Source of the DNA: a virus
DNA: 64,000 nt
Direction: 5' to 3' (one strand)
IMG/VR virus record: IMGVR_UViG_3300031965_000019
Location: 2,490-66,489 of that record
The translations under genes and the position numbers were made by a program. The notes under the pieces were generated by a model. It had not been told where the DNA came from. It worked only from the letters and a program-made list of their open reading frames with translations, and did not search any database. Positions 11,447 to 64,000 of this stretch are shown one piece after another (within the stretch, counting starts at the first letter, position 1; each line of letters opens with the position of its first letter).

Positions 11447-12490
11447 TTACGCCGCGGCATTCTGGAACAAGACGCCGCTGGCCGGGGCCACGATATCGTA
11501 AGTGATCGTGTCGACCACGCGGCCCTTGGTGCGACGGTTGTTGGCGTCGCGCAAGGTCTCGACCGTCATTTCCTCTTGAGCGAAGCCCACGCAGGTCGAA
11601 AAGTTCGGGGCATCGGCCACGCCCACTAGGCCACCCGGGCGAGCGACCATGAACGGCGTCGCCTTGGCGAGCACTTGGCTCTTGGCCGTGGTCGCGCCCT
11701 TTTTCGACGTAACCTTGCGGGTGGCCTCGACCACCAGCGGGAAGCCGTACAGCTTGTTGGGCAAACCGTACATGGTGTTTTCGCCGGGCAGTTCGCCCTT
11801 CACTTGGGCCAGCGCGTCGGGCGAGCCCTTGATATAGTCAGTTATTTCCTGACTCTGCGTCAGTTCGGCGGCCAGCGCCGAGTTGATCACCACAACCAGA
11901 TCATCCATTTCGATCGCCGCGAGCGTGTCGTCCAGGATCAGCTCGGCCGCGGTCTGGAGCGATCGCTTGATGTCCTGGCGCGCGGTCGTGCTCTGGGCCC
12001 AGTTGCCCGTGTTGTTGGCGATCGCCGACACGTCCAAAACGTGCGAGACCGAGTAGTTGGCCGTGTTGGTGAGCGCGGAGATCGCCAGTTGCGTCCGGGC
12101 CGTCATCGCCTTGCGGCTGTGAATGCTCGCGTGCTGATCAAGGATGTTCCACGACGCCTGATTGATCGTGAGATCGCCCAGACGGAACCCGTAAGCGTAG
12201 CGCTTGGCGGTGAACGGAAAGAACTCGAACGATTCGTTCCCGTCGATGCCTTCGGGCGCTTCCTGTCCGTCGTACCAGACATAGGTGCGCAGGTCGGCAT
12301 GAATGAGACGCCCCGCCTCTTCGACGGTCATGCGCAGAAAGTAGCCGCCGATTTTCTCGACGGGCACTACCTGCGTGTACTTGTTGACGGCGAACTTCTT
12401 GATGTTCCGCGCGAAGTCAATGACCATTTTGTTGGAATGTTCATGCGAGCGGATGTAGACGTTACTCGGTCCAGGATGTACGGCGGCCAT
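11447..12490 (-). CDS. Major capsid protein (347 aa)
   Basis: Position after protease and decoration gene; size; …LPNKLYGFPLVV… capsid-like C-terminal half. Confidence 0.85.
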   Translation of the reverse strand: MAAVHPGPSNVYIRSHEHSNKMVIDFARNIKKFAVNKYTQVVPVEKIGGYFLRMTVEEAGRLIHADLRTYVWYDGQEAPEGIDGNESFEFFPFTAKRYAYGFRLGDLTINQASWNILDQHASIHSRKAMTARTQLAISALTNTANYSVSHVLDVSAIANNTGNWAQSTTARQDIKRSLQTAAELILDDTLAAIEMDDLVVVINSALAAELTQSQEITDYIKGSPDALAQVKGELPGENTMYGLPNKLYGFPLVVEATRKVTSKKGATTAKSQVLAKATPFMVARPGGLVGVADAPNFSTCVGFAQEEMTVETLRDANNRRTKGRVVDTITYDIVAPASGVLFQNAAA

Positions 12491-13141: not shown

Positions 13142-14896
13142 TTAGGCGACATCTCCGTACTTGCCGTTTTTGACATCGGTGAGGACCGCCACGTAGTCCG
13201 CATCCTTCCCCTCGGCGATGAATCCCTCGCAGATCACCCGTGCCTTATCAGCACAAGCCTTGCCGTACTGCTCTTTCTGTAGCCGGTTTCCCGGGGCGGT
13301 CGGTTCGATCATGCCCGCGATCGGATCGTAAGGCAGATCGATCGTCGGCATCCGCTGATAGTGCTCGGTGATTGCCGCGATCGCGTCTGTGAACTGATCG
13401 TTGTTCACCTTGCCGGCGTTCAGACGCTCCATTTCCTTGTCAGGATCGAGCGCGTAGCCGTCCATCTGGAGCGCCTGCAGGTTTTGACGACGCTCGGCAT
13501 TGATCCTGGCATAGCGTTCGACCTGCAACTCTTTCTTGAGCTGCGCGGACTCATCGGAGACACGCCGCAAGTCGGCCTGGACCCGCTGATACTGGATGCT
13601 CTCGGCATGGCTGACGCGGGCGTAAGGTGCCGAAGCGTTTTTCCCATTTCCCGTGGCGTCGTCGACCGAACCGCTGGCCACGCTCATCGAACCGTCGGCG
13701 GAACCCTCGCCGCTGGGGTTTTGTGGACTGCCGTCAACCGAACCGTCCGCCTGATAAGAGGCTGGCCCCGTGGTTTCGTCGCGATCGACTTTCTTGCCGC
13801 CGAGGTCGCCCTCGTTGGCCGTCTGATACGACCCCGCGGCGTTTTCGCCATCGGCTGCGTATCTGCGCTGCTTACGGCTCGCCATGTAGCAATCGATATC
13901 CTCGTCGCTCATGTCGTCCATCGCGGCGTAGGCTTTCTGCATCTTGGCCTTTTGCTCGTCGTCGGACGGGACCGCTGGCGGCGAAACGTCTCCATTGGCA
14001 GCGGGCGGACTTGGCGGGGCAGCGTCCGGGGGAGGTGAAACCGGGGGCGCTGGAGAAGATGGCGGCGCTTGCGGCGTAGGCGGTGCCGGTGCCGTCGGTG
14101 CCGGACTCGGAGTGTCTCCGGCGACTTCGCCACCCGCCAAGCCACCCGACTGTTGAGCCATAAGAGTGCGGATGAATTGGAACTCTTCGGTTTGCCCGAG
14201 TGAATTGCAAATCTGTTGAATGTCTTGCTCGGTCAACATGGTTGAATCCCCAGTGTTGGAGGGTGAATAGTTTTGCCTCTCGTCCTCACTGTCGGGGACG
14301 AAAACATTACTAGGGCCAGGCGCGACGGCCGCGTACTTTTCACGCAGCACGCGCCGACCGCCGCGATGTAAAGTGGCCGAGTACAAGAGCCCCAGATCGA
14401 GTCGAGGCGCTTCCGCGCCCAAGAGCGCAATCGGGTCCAGGAACATTTCCTCGTAACGGTCCTCAAGCCACAGCTCCGGACTGCGTCTTGGGTAACGCTT
14501 GAAGCGATTGACTTCGTCGCGAAAGATGTGAAAATCGGCCAGAATAGCCCAGCGTTGACGAGTGCCAGCCTGGCCAATCTTACCCATGCGAAACGGGCCA
14601 GCGAAACCAACCACCTCGGGCTCGGCGCCGCCGCCAGGCTTTTGCGTGTGGCCGATGCACACGGCCGCGAAGTCGCCGCTTTCAGCAATGCGACGATTGC
14701 ACCGATCGCAGACCAGCTTGAGCTCGTTGTACGTGAACTTGAGATCACGGCCGCGTCGGTCCTGCGTCTCATGCTCGGCGAACACGGGCACGTTGGCGAT
14801 GCTGACGAACTCGTCGTCGGGGAAGTCGCCTGGCTGCCGGACGTTTCCTTGCGGAACGGCCATCGCCATGTCGGAGGCTTGGACGGTCGCGACCAT
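13142..14896 (-). CDS. Mu gpI-like prohead protease with scaffold (584 aa)
   Basis: IGHT and RRSPEL putative catalytic motifs, ALLGAEAP; Pro-rich linker; coiled-coil C-terminus. Confidence 0.8.
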   Translation of the reverse strand: MVATVQASDMAMAVPQGNVRQPGDFPDDEFVSIANVPVFAEHETQDRRGRDLKFTYNELKLVCDRCNRRIAESGDFAAVCIGHTQKPGGGAEPEVVGFAGPFRMGKIGQAGTRQRWAILADFHIFRDEVNRFKRYPRRSPELWLEDRYEEMFLDPIALLGAEAPRLDLGLLYSATLHRGGRRVLREKYAAVAPGPSNVFVPDSEDERQNYSPSNTGDSTMLTEQDIQQICNSLGQTEEFQFIRTLMAQQSGGLAGGEVAGDTPSPAPTAPAPPTPQAPPSSPAPPVSPPPDAAPPSPPAANGDVSPPAVPSDDEQKAKMQKAYAAMDDMSDEDIDCYMASRKQRRYAADGENAAGSYQTANEGDLGGKKVDRDETTGPASYQADGSVDGSPQNPSGEGSADGSMSVASGSVDDATGNGKNASAPYARVSHAESIQYQRVQADLRRVSDESAQLKKELQVERYARINAERRQNLQALQMDGYALDPDKEMERLNAGKVNNDQFTDAIAAITEHYQRMPTIDLPYDPIAGMIEPTAPGNRLQKEQYGKACADKARVICEGFIAEGKDADYVAVLTDVKNGKYGDVA

Positions 14897-15094: not shown

Positions 15095-15292
15095 TCAATC
15101 CGGCGAGAGATTCTTGTTGAGGCTGCTGCGGGCATCGGTCGCTAGGCCATTGCTGATATTGATGTTGACCACGATATTTCCGCTGAGTTTCTTGGCTAGC
15201 ACAAGCCGTAGCAGCTCTTGAAGTTCCCGGACGGCGGCCAGCTTCCAGCGTTTACTGCTATCAGTATCGACTCCCTGGTGGACGATGCTCAC
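15095..15292 (-). CDS. Small hypothetical protein (65 aa)
   Basis: GTG start with GGGAG SD just after portal stop; track ORF 15095..15577 overextends it. Confidence 0.5.
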   Translation of the reverse strand: MSIVHQGVDTDSSKRWKLAAVRELQELLRLVLAKKLSGNIVVNINISNGLATDARSSLNKNLSPD

Positions 15293-15302
15293 CTGCCGCT
15301 CC

Positions 15303-18032
15303 CTAGACCATTTGCGCCATATAGGCTTCCAGGACTTGCTTGCGGAAGAACATTTCACGCTGGGCGCCGGTGAGCCGGCTCGGCCGCTTTGGTTTTGCGG
15401 CTTGCTGCCCCACATGGGACGGGTCGACGTCTTTGAACAGGCCGCGCTGGCCAGGCAGCGATGCCGCCTGCTTGGCCGGATGCTCCCAGCCGGTGAAGTC
15501 GATCGCCGCGAACTGACCGCCGCTGTCGCGATTGTGCTTGGATTCGCTCCAATCGGTGCCGTAGTCAATCCGATCATCGGCAGGATCGAACGTACCGCGG
15601 TTGCCGGTGGCGGATTTTATCTGGTTCGGATTGAAGGCAATCCAGACACGGCCGTAGTCACCTTCACGTTCAAGTCCAAGGCGGACGCTTCCAGCAACGT
15701 CCCCAGCCATGTGAGTTATTCCATCATATCCAGCAGAAGCGATGAGATCATTTACATGCGACTTAGTGCGGTAGTTTAAGAATAACCTCCAAAGATCTCG
15801 ATGCTTCATTCCATCATCATCTTTGTAGTAAAGAGAAACTGTGTCGTGGATTTCCTCGGATTCACGCTCTGAGATTAGTCGCGACTCGACAGTGCGAGAC
15901 ACAATCCTCTGGGCCTCTTCAAGCTCGATCGGCGAATCGTAGTCGAACGGCCTGCGGATATTGAGATAAACGGCGCGGATATGGCTGTCATCGGATGCGT
16001 ACATTGACGCGATTTCTTTGTTCTCGGCAAAATAAAACCCTTTGCCGACCATAGTCGCCCCTGATTTCTCAGGATCGAAGGCATCGAAATCTGCATCAGT
16101 GCCGTGGTAAACAACCTTGCCATCGCCGTGAGTTTCTTGTGGCTCACCAGTTCCCTTGTTGACCACCTTGCTAGAATTTGCCCGATCATTCTCCCAGTCA
16201 CCAAACCACGCCTTGAACTCTGGTGTCTCAGTCTGCTTGGAGCGGCTCTCAGTGGCCACCGCTGTTTCGCCGACGTCGGTGAACTTACCGTCATCGGATC
16301 GCGGGTGTTCCTCTTCTCGAAACGCCGCGTAACTCGCCAGCCGCTTGCGGTCGCTGTTCTCGCTCGGGAGTCCGTTGGCGACATACTCGGCTTGCTCCGC
16401 GGCCTCTGCCGGCGCGGAAGGCGTCGGCTCCGCAGACTGTCCATTCGAGCTCGGATCGCCGAACTGGCCAATGTTCGCCCCGGGGACCGGGCCCATCGCG
16501 CCCATCTGTGCCGATTGCGCCGCGGCCTGCTGCTCTTTCATCTGCTCGAATTTGTCCAGGACTTCGGAATCCGGCTCTGGCGCCGGCGCGCCTATGAGAT
16601 CGCGAAGCTGCTTGGCGTCCAGTCGCAGGCCCATCTCGTAAGCCTTCAAAAACGCCTCGATCATCGACTCCGCGTCGGGCTCGCGAGTGTGAATCACGAA
16701 CCTGAAGTCGACGTTGGCCATCCGCGGCAGGGCGAGCTTCTTAATCGGACTCAACAGGTCCGTAGTAATCGTTTCCTCCAGCAGCATGGAGTCGTAACGC
16801 ACGATCTGCATGAAGACATCCATTTGAACGTCGGCGAGATTCGAGCCGAGGCCCGTGGCCGACGCTTCCGTGGTGAGCGTCTGGCCGAGGATGTAGCGCT
16901 TGATCGAGTGGCCGAAGTATTCGGTAATGATGCTTTTGAGGGACTCGACTCCGCCCATGCCTGGCTCGATTCGCTCCACACCGTAGACCTGACCGTCCTC
17001 GCCCATCGGTCGCGGGACCATGATGATGTTGCGGCCGTTTTCGATTTTTTCCTCGGCGGCCTTGCGCATTTCGGCTTTGGCCGTCGCATTGCCCATTGGG
17101 TAATACCAGATTTCGATGCCCATTGCCGAGCGTTCCATGAAATCCATCATATTGGCGAGCGTCTCTTGCTTCTGGTACCAAGTCCAGTAAATGACGGAAC
17201 GAATACCGACTCCGTGAATCCGGCCGGCGTTAGCCGGATCGTGATAGTCGCCGTCCTCGATCCGGTGCTTGTGGACCGCCAGCAGAATCGACTCCCAAGT
17301 GTCCAGAAAATACGCCAGTCCGTGATCGGTCGCTTCCAACTTGCGGACCCGTTCCACCGTGCCTCGGAAGCCACGCGAGCGATAGTGGTCCTGCATCTGA
17401 CTCAACTGGTTGACGCCCGTGTAGATGCCCGCGCCGACTCGAATCCCGATCTGATCGGGCCGGTGGTCGTTCATGCCGTCGTCGTACCGAAACACGATCT
17501 TGTCGCCGTTCACTGGCAGCCACCGCAACGGCATGGGACGCATCTTGCCCGCGACTAAGCGGTAGCCCCACTTGTGCTGGATGCCGTATTTTCCGTACCA
17601 CGTCGCGTGCAGTAGATTCTCACGATACTGCATAAAGCGGGGAATCTTTTCCAGGATTTTCGTGAGGATCTGTGCCGCCTCTTTCTGCTCGGCATTGTTC
17701 GCGTCCTCGGGCTCGACGCTCCAATCCAAGAGTGCCACGGCCCGCTGCCGCATTTCGACGCACTCCATGATCGTGACGTCGTTACGCATGAATTTGGCAT
17801 TGTCGAAGCTGTCCTGGATTGCCTCGTCGCTGGCGCGATAGACTTTGGCCTGCGAGCCGGCAATGCCCTGAAAAGTGAAGGCGTGGCGCAATAGGTAGTC
17901 GCCCAGATTGGGCGGCATTCCGTCGATGCCGGATGCCGGATCGTCGCCCGCGTCAAACCGCTCGTCGCCTATTTTCAGCGGATCGCGACGCATGGAATCG
18001 CCAAGATCAATGACTGTGCCTGTAGCGGCCAT
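15303..18032 (-). CDS. Portal protein (DUF935 / Mu gp29-like) fused to C-terminal ADP-ribosyltransferase-like domain (909 aa)
   Basis: Start MAATGTVID at 18032 with AGGGGG SD; portal region …ILGQTLTT…; then EFKAWFGDW…YHGT…GFYF…QIKSATGNRGTFDP. Confidence 0.85.
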   Translation of the reverse strand: MAATGTVIDLGDSMRRDPLKIGDERFDAGDDPASGIDGMPPNLGDYLLRHAFTFQGIAGSQAKVYRASDEAIQDSFDNAKFMRNDVTIMECVEMRQRAVALLDWSVEPEDANNAEQKEAAQILTKILEKIPRFMQYRENLLHATWYGKYGIQHKWGYRLVAGKMRPMPLRWLPVNGDKIVFRYDDGMNDHRPDQIGIRVGAGIYTGVNQLSQMQDHYRSRGFRGTVERVRKLEATDHGLAYFLDTWESILLAVHKHRIEDGDYHDPANAGRIHGVGIRSVIYWTWYQKQETLANMMDFMERSAMGIEIWYYPMGNATAKAEMRKAAEEKIENGRNIIMVPRPMGEDGQVYGVERIEPGMGGVESLKSIITEYFGHSIKRYILGQTLTTEASATGLGSNLADVQMDVFMQIVRYDSMLLEETITTDLLSPIKKLALPRMANVDFRFVIHTREPDAESMIEAFLKAYEMGLRLDAKQLRDLIGAPAPEPDSEVLDKFEQMKEQQAAAQSAQMGAMGPVPGANIGQFGDPSSNGQSAEPTPSAPAEAAEQAEYVANGLPSENSDRKRLASYAAFREEEHPRSDDGKFTDVGETAVATESRSKQTETPEFKAWFGDWENDRANSSKVVNKGTGEPQETHGDGKVVYHGTDADFDAFDPEKSGATMVGKGFYFAENKEIASMYASDDSHIRAVYLNIRRPFDYDSPIELEEAQRIVSRTVESRLISERESEEIHDTVSLYYKDDDGMKHRDLWRLFLNYRTKSHVNDLIASAGYDGITHMAGDVAGSVRLGLEREGDYGRVWIAFNPNQIKSATGNRGTFDPADDRIDYGTDWSESKHNRDSGGQFAAIDFTGWEHPAKQAASLPGQRGLFKDVDPSHVGQQAAKPKRPSRLTGAQREMFFRKQVLEAYMAQMV

Positions 18033-18043
18033 CGGCTGACCCC

Positions 18044-19222
18044 CTATCGAAAGTTGAACGGGCTCGGTTTCATGGTCGCGCCGCTCGTAAGCACCTTGAT
18101 TTTTCCAGTGCTCACGCTCTTGACCCGGACGGTTCGCTGAACATACATTTCGCCTTCGGCCGTCATAGTAGCCTTGCGCGGGACGTAGTTGTTTCTGACG
18201 CCGACGAGCTGATAATCGTGCTGGTGGCCAGAAATCGTGCCGCGAATTCTCAGGCTGTCCCACACCCAGCCGCCCTTGGACGCCGCGGCGTGTAGTCCAA
18301 GAAACTTCTGGGGTCGTACATTCGCATAGCTGTAGAGGCTCCCCGCGACTCCGTAGACCATGTGCGACTGAAACCGCACGTAGAGCGTCCATGTGTCGAC
18401 GTCATAGGAATAGCTGTAGACGTTGGACGATTGGGGCGTGCGGACCATTTCCTTGGTGACAATCGGATGCGTCGCCGGGAACCTGCGCCGCGAGCCGTCG
18501 CCAAAGTCGACGTCGATCACCTTGCGTGGCTGACCGCGTCCGGTGGTTTTCGAGACACCGCCAGGATAGGTCGATTCGTCGACGGTTGTCGTGGGCTCGT
18601 CGCTCAGCCCTCGAGCCTTGGCAGCGGCCCCAGCCGCTCCCACCTTTCCGGCCTGTGGTTTTACTTCGTACCCGTGGGTTTCGAGGAATTCTTTGGCGGC
18701 TTCGATCTGGTCGGCGACTTCACGCGCGGACCGATTGGCGATCGGCTTTTGCAGACGAGACGCCTTGCGGCCGCGGGTCGAGAGCATATCTGGCGCTACC
18801 GCGTCCAGGAAATCCAACGCCGTCTGGATATCGCCACCGAGGCCGCTCTTGCGGGCCCTGCCGCCACTGGTCACCAGCGACCGGATGAGGGAGCCCACCG
18901 GACCCATCGTCGAGAGAAACTCGCCCAACAGTTGCGCAGTCGATCCCCCGAGGCGGGCGTAACGCTCCACTTCGCGTACCATGCGACCGAAGTCATTCGA
19001 CAACAGCGAGTTCCTCACCGTGTCGTTCAACCCGCCGCGTCCCCAAGACGTGAGGGCGTCGCGGATGGCCGTGCCGGCGCTGGCGTGTTTCCCAGAATTC
19101 AGCGCGGAGCGGACCTGGCCGATGGCTTTGGCCGCGGTCGTGCGTTGCCACTCGCGACGGGCCGATCTCTGGACGGTACGTGACGCGAGGCGAAACAACG
19201 GATTGATGTGAAAGTTGCCCAT
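18044..19222 (-). CDS. KTSC-domain protein (392 aa)
   Basis: SSNVYSYSYD…TLYVRF…YSYANV…AASKGGWVW KTSC pattern near C-terminus. Confidence 0.7.
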   Translation of the reverse strand: MGNFHINPLFRLASRTVQRSARREWQRTTAAKAIGQVRSALNSGKHASAGTAIRDALTSWGRGGLNDTVRNSLLSNDFGRMVREVERYARLGGSTAQLLGEFLSTMGPVGSLIRSLVTSGGRARKSGLGGDIQTALDFLDAVAPDMLSTRGRKASRLQKPIANRSAREVADQIEAAKEFLETHGYEVKPQAGKVGAAGAAAKARGLSDEPTTTVDESTYPGGVSKTTGRGQPRKVIDVDFGDGSRRRFPATHPIVTKEMVRTPQSSNVYSYSYDVDTWTLYVRFQSHMVYGVAGSLYSYANVRPQKFLGLHAAASKGGWVWDSLRIRGTISGHQHDYQLVGVRNNYVPRKATMTAEGEMYVQRTVRVKSVSTGKIKVLTSGATMKPSPFNFR

Positions 19223-36217: not shown

Positions 36218-36433
36218 TTAAAGCAAGCGAGCTTTTTGACAGCTATCAATTATCGTTCCCAATGTTTCCAGGTCGGCGGGAGATAATTCGAGTTCATAGT
36301 CGTGAGATTGAATAAGCAACCGACCTGTCTCAGGATACCATTTCCAACTTCCTGCTCTATGAGAGTCGGGGTTGAACGGTTTTGTTTCCAACGTGATTTT
36401 TAACTCGGATGCAATACATTTAGTAATTTTCAT
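36218..36433 (-). CDS. Hypothetical protein (71 aa)
   Basis: ATGA overlap with upstream gene. Confidence 0.5.
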   Translation of the reverse strand: MKITKCIASELKITLETKPFNPDSHRAGSWKWYPETGRLLIQSHDYELELSPADLETLGTIIDSCQKARLL

Positions 36434-36816
36434 TTGTCGTCTCTCACCTTTCTCCGCGCTTGGCGGTGACTTGGTAACTCCCAATTTTCGATCACGATTT
36501 CCCAATCGACTTCATTAACTGGCGCATCCCCAAATGAGGCAATTTTGTTCATCTGCTCTTGGATATGCGGTAGTCGTAAACAGTCTGGGAACAGTTTTGC
36601 GACCTCCTCTGCGCCTAACGTGGCGGTAGGGCCAAGATCGGATTCCTTGATGAACCACGTCATCAAGCAATTTGCGCATGACTTTCCAGTCGTCTTAGTC
36701 CCACGACGAAAGTAGCTTGACGCCGACTTAGGCCCGACCTGACAAAGCCGTCCGCACCGCTCGCAAGACTTTTTAGTGACTGAAGATTCTTCCGAAAAAA
36801 GACTATGCTGTGTCAC
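36430..36816 (-). CDS. Zn-finger hypothetical protein
   Basis: CERC…CANC. Confidence 0.55.
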   Translation of the reverse strand: MTQHSLFSEESSVTKKSCERCGRLCQVGPKSASSYFRRGTKTTGKSCANCLMTWFIKESDLGPTATLGAEEVAKLFPDCLRLPHIQEQMNKIASFGDAPVNEVDWEIVIENWELPSHRQARRKVRDDK

Positions 36817-41430: not shown

Positions 41431-42033
41431 TTAAAACATGCTTGGTTGTGGCGTAGGCGCCACCGTTGGCGCCGGCCTCTTTTTCTTGGGGCTCTGGATG
41501 CCCAGCACCGTGTCGGCCGCTTCGCGTTGCGCCGCGATCTCAGGCTCGGCCAATCCTTCGGCAACCAAGCCGAGACGGTAGAGCCCGTAGGCGTCGTACT
41601 CGTCGTTCGAGCTCAATAAGACGCCGTAGCGTTTCGTGAGATGCGCCGCGATCATGTCCTTCGTGCCTTTGCCAACGCCCGTGCAAAACTTTTTCAGCGT
41701 CGACGGCGCGACCTCGAAAATTCGCGGCGTGAGTTCCGCCAAATGCCAGCGCAAAATTCCGCCGTACTCTGCGATCCCGGAGACGGCGTTGCCCATGCTG
41801 GCGAAGCTGTAGCCCTCGATGTAGACCGCGGCGATCGGACCGTCGCCAATCCAGTCCATGATCCGCGCGACCAAGTCGTCGTAACGCGCGACGCGCCCGG
41901 ACACGTTTTTGCCGCATGGCAGCGACGAGAAAACGGCCAAGCTGTAACTGTCCGTGTCGGCGCCGCCCTGAATGACCGCCGTGCTGGTCAGCGACGGATC
42001 GATGGCTAGGATGTTTTTTGCGACGTCGGTCAT
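41431..42033 (-). CDS. RuvC-like Holliday junction resolvase
   Basis: ILAIDPSL…YIEGY…KKFCTGVGKGTK…DEYDA. Confidence 0.85.
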   Translation of the reverse strand: MTDVAKNILAIDPSLTSTAVIQGGADTDSYSLAVFSSLPCGKNVSGRVARYDDLVARIMDWIGDGPIAAVYIEGYSFASMGNAVSGIAEYGGILRWHLAELTPRIFEVAPSTLKKFCTGVGKGTKDMIAAHLTKRYGVLLSSNDEYDAYGLYRLGLVAEGLAEPEIAAQREAADTVLGIQSPKKKRPAPTVAPTPQPSMF

Positions 42034-42269
42034 TTCATTTCCTCCAGTACGTACCGGTGACACAGCAGCAGCTTGCCGCCCACGTCCTCAAATCGTTTTT
42101 TGCACTCCTCGTAATCTCGCCGGCTCCCCGCCAACTCCACGCAGCGGATCATGCGCGACGTGCGCGGCACCGGCTGTTCGTACACGATGCGGATGATCTC
42201 CTTCGGCGCCAGCTCGCGACTCAGGCCGAACTCGAAGGCGATCTCGGATGTGTGATCGTGGTCAGGCAT
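42030..42269 (-). CDS. Hypothetical protein (79 aa)
   Basis: Overlapping stop/start with neighbours. Confidence 0.55.
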   Translation of the reverse strand: MPDHDHTSEIAFEFGLSRELAPKEIIRIVYEQPVPRTSRMIRCVELAGSRRDYEECKKRFEDVGGKLLLCHRYVLEEMK

Positions 42270-57143: not shown

Positions 57144-57965
57144 ATGATTGCCGTCGCCGATTCTTTTGTCGCCCATGCCGAGCGATACATGCTGGCTAAT
57201 CCTTGCTGTCGAAAGCACCGGGAAAACATACGGGGTCGCATCCGTCGCTTCGTGGCGTGGTTCCCGGGCTCCCCGAAATCGCTGGCGCCCGAAGACCTGA
57301 ATGGCTTTCTGGCTTCCCTGGAGCGCGCCGGCCTCAGCGCTCACACTGTCAACGGCTACCGCGCGACAATCATGGCTGTCTGGCGGTTCGTGCTGGGAGA
57401 AAGAATTCGTTGGAAGATAAGGCGGGTACGTCCGCCGCAGAGAGAAGTGAAAGCCTGGAGCGTCGGCCAAGTGCGACAACTGCTGAGCGTTGCCGTGACG
57501 TTGCGTGGCCGGCTGCCCAACGGCGTGCAGCGGCGGCTGTTTTTCCTAACGGCGATCCACGCCGGGTTTTCCACGGGACAGAGATACGGGGATCTGGCCA
57601 GACTGCCAGTGGCGGCGATTCGAGCCGATAGGACGGCGACCTTCGTTCAATCCAAGACGGGCCGTCGCGTCACTGTTCGTTTCAGCGATAAGGCGGTGCG
57701 CTGCATTCGAGCTCACGGGCAGGCGACGGTAATTCCCAATCCGCACACGCAGCAGTGGTTTTGCGTGGCGTTCGGCGATTTGGTGGAACGAGCCGGGATC
57801 AGGCGCGGGAGCTTCAGGTGGCTCCGCCGCAGCGCGGGCTCGTATGTCGAGCGGGCGACTGGGCGAGGGCCGGAACTGCTGGGGAACACCAGAGCCGTGT
57901 TCGAGGCGAATTATCAGGCGGAGTCAATCACGAGGCGAGCACCGCCGGAGCCGCCGCGGCTGTAG
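57144..57965 (+). CDS. int: Tyrosine recombinase / integrase (273 aa, divergent)
   Basis: SAM-like N-terminus, TGQRYGDL, QSKTG, FRWLRR, LLGN, Tyr in ANY. Confidence 0.8.
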   Translation: MIAVADSFVAHAERYMLANPCCRKHRENIRGRIRRFVAWFPGSPKSLAPEDLNGFLASLERAGLSAHTVNGYRATIMAVWRFVLGERIRWKIRRVRPPQREVKAWSVGQVRQLLSVAVTLRGRLPNGVQRRLFFLTAIHAGFSTGQRYGDLARLPVAAIRADRTATFVQSKTGRRVTVRFSDKAVRCIRAHGQATVIPNPHTQQWFCVAFGDLVERAGIRRGSFRWLRRSAGSYVERATGRGPELLGNTRAVFEANYQAESITRRAPPEPPRL

Positions 57966-63900: not shown

Positions 63901-64000
63901 CGCGTTCGCGCACGAGGAATCGTCGGACCTCTCGAAACAGGTGATTGCGGCCGGACTCTCCAGCGGCGTCGACGTCGTGGTCGACACCACGGGCGACAAC
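60911..64000 (+). CDS. Large polyvalent protein (>1030 aa): ParB-like domain, HPR-x3-G-x-F motifs, zeta-toxin-like kinase; runs off the right edge
   Basis: Manual translation is open from ATG 60911; YVVNGHHR; GGGTASGKT at 63752; DPDAIK; AHEESS; VVDTT. Confidence 0.88.
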   Translation, partial: MNATLAIRKAFRIQRYRERFRAATDQRIHVRDRAALVAALNEQFSRQRYAADDHQWVTIGGSAEGGKKHAGGTPVRLDESGQITAGPPSLEGKSIHSLGKAPESEPDGDLFSDVKAADKAGAFTGRKSEPASDAIPKAQPARVGGIDAPSVKSMPDGRKVGLTLLRPDEMEADPARFQYKVSGIGDEGVTEELKEIERFRPEFAGQLLVWHDPKDGKTYVVNGHHRFELARRSGYDQPLPVYLIDVKDERGARAQGALANIAEGRGTAIDAAKFFRESDMTPDELKSEGVSMKGKTADEGLSLSKLSENSFTALVNDQLDEKRALAITRNVDDHDKQDEILRSVRRYEQAGRPMRDDAVEEMAIDAALTESVVEEQTDLFGTEEVKRSLAAERGVLKAAVKSELSREARAFTEVGCRGRAETLAEAGNVLDISGNQQRAQAAQQLLAQFVSDTKFKGGINDVINEFSNRLTKEPKREKELIRELVAQVRTILSQADSGREKASGPADGGDSAAREGYRKRTERAVFTLRESLTNMRFARQLAYGIEALRYAKGFVESEHPRDDEGQFTSNGSSAKPPAETEIINPSKSLADRFGDDAKQVPAKISEGRSQREINRWQEKLNKDGDKALQALSGYLASLIIGRDFNEQPDKYFERQGLTEFVKWSRTAKADLQKSAEDPTPRRKDGKPIWNQSNRGLQNRSLQVAMAAGHKNWKVSDLPNSAQEVLADKKIDRNLGLLPEDADQRIAKAFEDTPAAMRAGLVTVLRDRLDPWFYDWVPTPEGRTAKTETGDDRDQLQREMFHRIAGHLLRYGMLEHNATCFGGDCYVLDKPKPRQQDYAAGQWDESKHPRAADGKFGSGFGQAATAEPPSTPSTDAPQAHGEAQSQSADLSEIHRRYPPHNPDGHDTQSRYKRPDGSYTPERKRLHDSIIGKHLEGVTPSESPTVYMLGGGTASGKTSAIKSGLIKLPTNAAQVDPDAIKGELPEYAALTEARDVIASAFAHEESSDLSKQVIAAGLSSGVDVVVDTTGDN
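62292..62495 (+). CDS. Nested out-of-frame small ORF (67 aa)
   Basis: GGAGG SD 8 nt before ATG; C-terminal amphipathic helix. Confidence 0.4.
   Translation: MSSTNSAIDSPKNPSEKKNSSESSSPKSEPFYHKLTPEEKKHLARQTAEIQRLEKATGREQSGPSLR

Follow-up and report, generated by a model that had tools for sequence, protein, structure and literature searches.

An ADP-ribosyltransferase-like cargo cassette in the C-terminal region of a Mu-type portal protein of a soil phage

The portal gene and its product

The stretch of DNA analysed here, called the window throughout, comprises 64,000 nucleotides (positions 2,490 to 66,489) of the IMG/VR virus record IMGVR_UViG_3300031965_000019, a complete soil-phage genome of 67,819 bp with direct terminal repeats. 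The subject of this study is its portal gene at 15303..18032, which encodes 909 aa plus the stop codon according to the open reading frame (ORF) and its translation. All coordinates are window positions and refer to the minus strand unless stated otherwise. An earlier note on this DNA had described the product as a portal protein fused to an ADP-ribosyltransferase (ART)-like domain that would be packaged on the portal, released by the head protease and injected into the host. The ART is an exchangeable cargo cassette in the C-terminal region of the portal, as is described below. The ORF itself spans 15303..18392 (-). The ATG at 18032 is the likely start, because it lies 11 nt past the stop codon of the upstream gene, which encodes a KTSC-domain protein, and because the homologues begin there too.

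Both domains of the protein were matched well above the curated Pfam cut-offs, which are 23.9 bits for Portal_Mu and 31.2 bits for ART-PolyVal, and they lie in the same open frame. The Portal_Mu match (PF06074; E 1.7e-40, 139.8 bits) covers residues 82-481 (16590..17789), and the ART-PolyVal match (PF18760; E 2.9e-26, 93.4 bits) covers residues 635-815 (15588..16130) and positions 3-140 of the 140 positions of the hidden Markov model (HMM). The protein also matches the portal family PHROG 113, and its C-terminal part leads to PHROGs of giant phage proteins.

The conserved portal body extends to about residue 505. It is followed by a low-complexity linker of Pro, Ala, Gln and Gly (residues 506-557, 16362..16517; GC 0.68), which is variable and gapped in the family alignment and which the earlier note had correctly recognized behind the body. 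The linker ends at the end-of-body motif ENSDRKRLASYAA (residues 558-570, 16323..16361), whose Y-A-A is a candidate protease site. The cassette starts with junction motif 1, FREEEHPRSDDGKF (residues 571-584, 16281..16322). The cassette body (residues 585-826, 15555..16280) is made up of the leader FKAWFGDW...SSKVV, the ART core and the terminal strand QIKSATGNRGTFDP (residues 804-817, 15582-15623). Junction motif 2, DWSESKHNRDSGGQF (residues 827-841, 15510..15554), is the start of the resident tail, and the conserved portal tail proper (residues 842-909, 15306..15509) carries two invariant Q-x-x-[LM]-F motifs.

The strings by which the domain had first been noticed, YHGT (residues 642-645, 16098-16109), GFYF (residues 665-668, 16029-16040) and QIKSATGNRGTFDP, are all present at the positions given for them, and the span 15500-16340 assigned to the fusion corresponds to residues 565-845. 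The domain between the two motifs is there as described, but its length is 248 aa and not ~225 aa. The order of the parts, with the ART after the portal body, also proved right; the ART is, however, an internal cassette ahead of a conserved portal tail and not a terminal add-on.

The description of the domain as visibly AT-richer was borne out by a sharply bounded drop in GC content and in GC content at third codon positions (GC3). The values for residues 585-826 of the cassette are GC 0.517 and GC3 0.550, as compared with GC 0.586 and GC3 0.766 for the portal body and GC 0.635 and GC3 0.771 for the tail; for the domain between the motifs a GC3 of 0.53 was obtained. The cassette GC3 is below that of every 220-codon window of eight other genes (minimum 0.573), and the GC3 step falls at the motif boundaries. 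This lower-GC composition suggests a fairly recent arrival of the cassette from a lower-GC source.

Integrity of the fused gene

The complete record contains one portal match and one ART-PolyVal match, and both are found in the same open frame (97.2 bits for the ART in a six-frame search). Since a complete genome with direct terminal repeats has a single portal match, the fused protein must be the working portal. The contig from the source run over this region has a uniform depth of 24.5 and shows no differences, and a 205-nt piece from the run of a second study joins motif 1 to the ART with 2 differences. The same portal-ART architecture occurs in a relative (P0005) which is 53% identical and is represented by seven contigs of 50-200 kb with the same neighbour genes; P0010 and P0017 are further portal-ART cases. 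An assembly artefact, which had been considered from the outset as something that would speak against the fusion, is effectively ruled out by the depth, the second-study piece and the relatives.

The cassette slot in the portal family

The portal search yielded 506 homologues, mostly on 60-73-kb contigs, several of them named as Planctomycetota metagenome-assembled genomes (MAGs). The portal body is 44-73% identical to the best homologues, and 71 of the 120 best ones are longer than 700 aa. At the slot occupied by the ART in the window, family members carry InPase, NUDIX, 2H phosphoesterase, DUF5661, LPD1, ADPrib_exo_Tox (a VIP2-type ART), topoisomerase IB (Topoisom_I), DUF5710 or ART-PolyVal. 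The three nearest portals, with bodies 69-73% identical, have InPase instead of ART.

A comparison of portal homologues with and without the insert, which the earlier note had proposed, showed the boundaries of the cassette. The cargo-less sibling P0007 is a 639-aa portal encoded on a 70.9-kb contig (L001) with identical gene order. It consists of the body, one junction motif and a tail in which the final ~85 residues of the window protein have a clear homologue. In a blastn comparison with L001, homology was confined to the body (17930-16767) and the tail (15561-15457, corresponding to L001 7641-7742, 75% identity), and the window has ~780 extra nt between these two matches. It follows that the ART entered as a cassette, made of motif 1 and the ART, inserted ahead of motif 2 and the resident tail. 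The same tail is found in P0002 (InPase), P0005 (ART), P0007 (no cargo), P0009 and P0050.

In a maximum-likelihood tree of 62 ART domains, the four portal-borne ARTs need 4 changes according to a quick search, while the starred branches allow 1; the tree thus accommodates one origin as well as several. The ART relatives in cultured phages all reside in non-portal proteins (F116 gp60, the virion RNA polymerase subunit of a crAss-like phage and DarB-like proteins).

The ART domain

Membership of the domain in the ART-PolyVal family is solid. The resemblance to ART domains of phage polyvalent proteins, which had been proposed from short motifs, was confirmed by both the HMM and the structure checks: the PF18760 match is above the cut-off, the H-Y-D triad is present and the model has an ART fold. 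The active site of ART-PolyVal domains is formed by a His in strand 1, a Tyr in strand 2 and an Asp in strand 5 (PMC5512222). The corresponding residues are H643 (16104-16106), Y667 (16032-16034) and D770 (15723-15725), which are conserved in 62/62, 56/62 and 60/62 aligned homologues, respectively. The 62 homologues were drawn from more than 9,900 matches, mostly multi-kiloresidue polyvalent proteins. In the AlphaFold 2 (AF2) model of the domain (predicted local distance difference test score (pLDDT) 85.6, predicted TM-score 0.82), H643 lies in strand 1 (57-60), Y667 in strand 2 (82-85) and D770 directly before strand 5 (187-192). The leader FKAWFGDW...SSKVV is conserved and, while upstream of the Pfam model, is part of the domain. 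Between strands 4 and 5 there is a helical insert of ~60 aa which varies among the homologues and is plausible as a specificity element.

The top Foldseek match of the model was chain B of 9k3a, a capsid ejection protein of cyanophage A4 (E 4.3e-7), followed by PARP1/2/3/4 (probability 0.8-1.0) and the ART anti-CRISPR 6kyf. VIA-align gave a Z-score of 9.3 for 9k3a chain B (3.4 Å over 156 residues, 20% identity) and Z-scores of 7.3-8.1 for tankyrase catalytic domains (~130 aligned residues, root-mean-square deviation ~4.2 Å). In a sequence profile, the HGT...GxGxYFA segment aligns to the NAD+ site of PARP12/14. With the catalytic residues and the fold of the family conserved, the domain is predicted to be an NAD+-dependent ADP-ribosyltransferase. 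We know of no assayed member of PF18760.

Junction motifs

Two HxRx3GxF motifs were said in the earlier note to bracket the ART domain, and both were found: HPRSDDGKF at residues 576-584 (16281-16307) and HNRDSGGQF at residues 833-841 (15510-15536). Each belongs to a longer signature, [WF]xExxHxRxxxGxF. The six-frame translation of the window contains 4 matches to the core motif and all 4 have the extended form; shuffled windows gave 0.89 for the core motif and 0/100 for the extended form. The family consensus is W-x-E-x-x-H-P-R-x-x-x-G-[KRQ]-F, and the motif stands right behind the portal body in many cargo-bearing homologues. The end-of-body consensus E-N-S-[DE]-R-x-[KR]-[LVM]-x-x-Y-[AS] is found in most of 66 homologues, with cargo or with none. 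The portal, protease-scaffold and polyvalent proteins together hold 7 of the 9 YAA motifs in the window, and two of these shortly precede a junction motif. In the AF2 model, motif 2 is poorly ordered and of low confidence, which suggests an exposed linear motif.

No Pfam family matches the junction motif or the tail, and a profile of 70 junction-motif copies run against the PDB gave nothing significant (best E 1.8). A full-text literature search returned no description of the motif, and the two surveys of polyvalent proteins and effectors by Iyer do not mention an HPR-type motif or cleavage at such a motif (PMC5512222, PMC9503650).

No RNA data set was listed as containing this stretch, and DNA runs other than the source run have short pieces of it only. 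In two sediment metagenomes there are short contigs of low depth that follow the window sequence in the linker and the tail and depart from it inside motif 1 (at 16300, X2) and at motif 2 (at 15536, X4). These contigs have a depth of 2-4 and are pieces of less than 200 nt; their divergence at the junction motifs is a hint that the backbone also occurs with other cargo.

The conserved tail and the sliding clamp

The tail is conserved whatever the cargo, which implies that it has a function of its own. Its motifs are SLPGQRGLF (Q862-F866, 15435-15449) and QREMF (Q891-F895, 15348-15362). In six tails with 39-53% identity, S-L-x-G-Q-x-x-L-F and the second Q-x-x-[LM]-F are invariant. When nothing but the tail (residues 822-909) was used for a word-index search, the query itself was the sole result; the tail relatives come from a local HMM run over the proteins already collected. 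The C-terminal extensions of 103 family members contain 39 Q-x-x-[LM]-F motifs, as against 3.8 +/- 2.1 after shuffling, and the motif is scarcer in the portal bodies, with 4 observed versus 10.6.

Q-x-x-[LM]-F fits the motif by which bacterial proteins bind the beta-clamp (QL[SD]LF type), and the tail has two copies. A complex model of the tail with two copies of the clamp protein DnaN scored 0.69, while the best of 3 controls scored 0.02; the mark used for such models is reached by 58/80 solved complexes and by 2/110 mismatched pairs. At least 51% of contacts are common to the runs, and the partner pLDDT is at least 45. The modelled SLPGQRGLF contacts DnaN residues 174-179, 246-251, 325-328, 351 and 363-368, which make up the canonical hydrophobic cleft between clamp domains II and III. 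The DnaN in the model is a stand-in from a Thermoguttaceae MAG with a related head module and not that of the phage host. Because many clamp-peptide complexes have been solved, the passing score may merely echo those structures and indicates likeness only.

These results led us to a tentative proposal, resting largely on modelling, which we consider rather unlikely as a whole. The tail would be an address label for the DNA sliding clamp. Cargo ejected together with the tail would be tethered to DnaN at replication forks, with clamp-associated proteins or the DNA of the fork as substrates of the ART; a cargo-less tail would act as a clamp-occupying peptide, and [WF]xExxHPRxxxG[KR]F would mark a common boundary, for processing or for recombination, by which cassettes become interchangeable. 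In some homologues G-Q-x-x-[LF] lies inside the longer junction signature, and it could therefore be a packaging or processing signal instead. A literature search on clamp-binding motifs in virion or injected phage proteins gave nothing pertinent.

Elsewhere in the genome, Q-x-x-[LM]-F occurs at residue 3 (TQHSLF) of a 128-aa protein (36433-36816 (-)) and, as the C-terminal pentapeptide QPSMF, in a 210-aa protein (41431-42063 (-)). Both motifs are placed as is typical of clamp-binding proteins. The phage proteome has 9 such motifs versus 2.6 expected.

Neighbouring genes and phage genome

The head genes are arranged in the order TerL, KTSC gene, portal, small gene, protease-scaffold, 141-aa gene and capsid protein, and this order is the same in L001, L003 and L008. 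The gene at 13142..14896 (-), separated from the portal gene by one small conserved gene, encodes a 584-aa probable prohead protease (first ~190 residues) with a scaffold. The product has no Pfam or PHROG match. Language-model and structure neighbours of its N-terminal ~190 residues are Mu-like_Pro, Phage_GPO (gpO), DUF2213 and Peptidase_S78; H42, H83 and S139 are conserved, and Y188-A-A stands at the end of the domain. A search of the wide PDB set gave T4 gp21 as the best match (Z 4.6), followed by the assemblin of varicella-zoster virus (Z 3.6), with an AF2 model that was built from 4 sequences and is poor (pLDDT 57.7). The product is probably a protease-scaffold fusion and a candidate for the cargo-releasing enzyme. 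The protease domain ends with K-Y-A-A-V-A-P-G-P-S-N-V-F-V (residues 186-200), in which Y188, A190 and P193 are kept in four sibling phages. This end resembles the N-terminus of the capsid protein, M-A-A-V-H-P-G-P-S-N-V-Y (12449-12490 (-)).

Immediately upstream of the portal gene lies the gene for the KTSC-domain protein (PF13619, E 1.5e-9; 18044-19222 (-), 392 aa). A homologue of similar size occupies the same position in the siblings L001 and L003. MuF (PF04233) had no match anywhere in the genome at E <= 1, and the KTSC-domain protein may be a head-internal partner standing in for it. The small gene between the portal and protease genes (~15095-15301 (-), about 65-70 aa) is kept in siblings with and without cargo at 25-29% identity, with a common R-x-L-Q-x-L-L core. 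As the cargo-less sibling has it too, it is not an ART-specific immunity gene. Among the neighbours examined, no cargo-specific immunity gene adjoins the portal gene; the rest of the genome could hold one.

A second protein of the phage with polyvalent character (1147 aa) is encoded on the opposite strand, remote from the head genes, from 60911 to the window end at 64000 (+) and on to 64354, 354 nt beyond the window (L006:401-3844). It combines a ParB-like segment with a Zeta_toxin domain (PF06414, E 4.9e-25, residues 933-1108) and has the other two junction motifs of the window, three YAA and two QxxLF motifs. Neither this protein nor the ART was matched by PADLOC. A 273-aa ORF at 57144-57965 (+) gave a weak tyrosine-recombinase match (PF00589, 23.6 bits versus a cut-off of 27.1) and could encode an integrase or a resolvase.

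A search of genome contigs detected a single related locus, a head module on a 140-kb contig (L008) of a Thermoguttaceae MAG. The host of the phage is probably a planctomycete.

Discussion

Portals are dodecamers with their C-termini inside the head. A C-terminal cassette would accordingly build ~12 ART copies into each procapsid with no separate targeting signal. The neighbouring Mu-I-like prohead protease would cut the extension off the portal, the candidate cut sites being the conserved Y-A-A that immediately precedes motif 1, the junction motifs, or both. Once freed, the ART, whether or not the conserved portal tail is still attached, would leave along with the DNA by way of the portal and tail channel. 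Early in infection it would consume NAD+ of the host and ADP-ribosylate host macromolecules. By analogy with related systems, packaging, proteolytic release and injection of the ART are plausible. The full reading, that is a functional portal whose ART cargo is packaged, released by the head protease and injected to modify the host, is the one that we favour with moderate confidence.

The fusion of a portal with an ART is an expected case of the portal-effector fusions that have been described computationally. Portal or MuF proteins with a fused PBECR, 2H or InPase domain were reported, together with the proposal that they are packaged and injected (Iyer 2017; PMC5512222), and the same was proposed for portal- and MuF-fused effectors including ARTs (Iyer 2017, 2022; PMC5512222, PMC9503650). 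Our case agrees with these in that an enzyme is fused to a head protein of a portal-terminase phage, the cargo is variable and packaging and injection are predicted. The published fusions are architectures only; what our case contributes is a sibling with an empty slot, precise cassette borders, the step in base composition, the conserved tail behind the cargo and the motifs that mark the borders. The prototype of ART-PolyVal (Tox-ART-HYD2) is the virion RNA polymerase polyvalent protein CBX87992.1 of Roseovarius Plymouth podovirus 1 (PMC5512222). The window domain shares the H-Y-D residues with this family, and the leader FKxWFGxSKVV and the terminal QIKS...GTF are common to 61 aligned homologues. 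The carrier is different: here it is a portal, with a single copy of the ART domain, whereas the domain typically occurs in multi-domain giants, in up to 12-22 copies.

T4 Alt is a working precedent: this ART is packaged in the head, enters the cell along with the DNA and modifies the host RNA polymerase and other proteins (PMC5512222). It belongs, however, to the R-S-E (Alt/VIP2) clade, and it is an internal protein free of any fusion to the portal. The pre-ejectosome protein of cyanophage A4 (9k3a chain B) is located on the portal, within the capsid, from which it is ejected (PMC12002296). It is a separate podovirus ejection protein of more than 1,000 residues, and the best structural match to the ART model falls within it (residues ~949-1601). 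As the main text of the A4 paper makes no mention of ADP-ribosylation (PMC12002296), our own reading is that 9k3a chain B may hold an unrecognised ART-PolyVal-like domain. MuF proteins, head proteins encoded beside the portal, bear polymorphic C-terminal toxin or enzyme domains including ARTs (Jamet 2017; PMC5576092). Variable cargo and the delivery hypothesis are common to both systems, but there the carrier is MuF, tied to temperate phages and immunity genes, while here it is the portal, with no MuF and no cargo-specific neighbour.

A precedent for release is the Mu portal gp29, the last 124 residues of which are absent from the virion structure because, according to the authors, protease I removes them (PMC11915804). 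Like the window protein, gp29 is a member of the Pfam family Portal_Mu; it undergoes C-terminal processing, and the head gene order is similar. Several points weigh against the reading that we favour. The tail of Mu gp29 lacks an enzyme, a junction motif and QxxLF, and the separate MuF protein of Mu, gp30, a protein of which our phage has no counterpart, likewise has neither motif; the precedent thus covers C-terminal processing in general only. The protease call rests on language-model and structure neighbours and on a weak Z-score of 4.6 with the poor model. TM-scores of the ART model to solved ARTs are low (0.25-0.36), which is ascribed to the helical insert and the leader, and the fold support is moderate on structure alone. 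The host was inferred only from MAG names and the one related prophage-like locus, and with a single related locus in the genome-contig search this assignment is weak.

Several other explanations have to be considered. A decayed, catalytically dead ART or a chimeric assembly is extremely unlikely. A chimeric join would be one conceivable cause of the compositional break, but the frame is open over both junctions, the tail after the ART is the portal family's own, and the architecture recurs in independent phages, along with even contig depth and the joining 205-nt piece in the second study; the H-Y-D triad and 30 other family-invariant positions are intact. The complete record, the even depth and the independent phages effectively exclude an assembly chimera. 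It is improbable, too, that the ART is packaged and never released, so that it would remain tethered to the portal crown and act in the procapsid or capsid on a phage protein or DNA, or serve as a plug or pressure element. For this speaks that the extension is covalently part of the sole portal, that the cleavage sites remain candidates and that DNA is a substrate of some ART clades (DarT, noted in PMC9503650). However, the slot takes unrelated enzymes (InPase, NUDIX, 2H, topoisomerase IB, Fic and VIP2-type ART) with cytoplasmic small-molecule or host-macromolecule substrates, portals of the Mu type are C-terminally processed, and the long flexible linker and the exposed junction motifs resemble release elements.

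The ART might also act late, in the producing cell, the fusion being a mere late-expression context. Unassembled portal monomers would there reach NAD+ and host proteins, and T4 ModA and ModB work unpackaged (PMC5512222). We judge this quite improbable, since it leaves the systematic attachment of cargo at the capsid-internal end as well as the junction motifs in the separate polyvalent protein unexplained, and the literature ties the architecture to virion delivery. There is a similarly small probability that the ART is a phage-delivered toxin in the sense of the MuF polymorphic toxins, which harms or arrests cells without immunity, to the benefit of lysogens or in phage competition, instead of making the cell ready for a productive infection. 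Cargo polymorphism on a conserved carrier is a feature of polymorphic toxins (PMC5576092), the related head module on the Thermoguttaceae contig means that relatives may be temperate, and a weak recombinase match exists in the genome. That match is under the Pfam cut-off, however, the genome has no MuF domain, and the portal gene adjoins no ART-specific immunity gene, the small gene being shared by the cargo-less sibling.

Among the weapons of a phage, enzymes delivered with the virion are the first to reach the cell. To our knowledge, almost none of them have been studied beyond T4 Alt and a few others. The locus described here is a clean natural experiment, in which sibling head modules have an empty slot, InPase or ART and the boundaries of the cassette are precise. 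It makes the loading and release of cargo from the portal, the role of the HPR...G.F junction motif and the targets of ART-PolyVal enzymes accessible to testing. If the clamp proposal were true, it would mean that phages direct the enzymes they inject to the replisome of the host.

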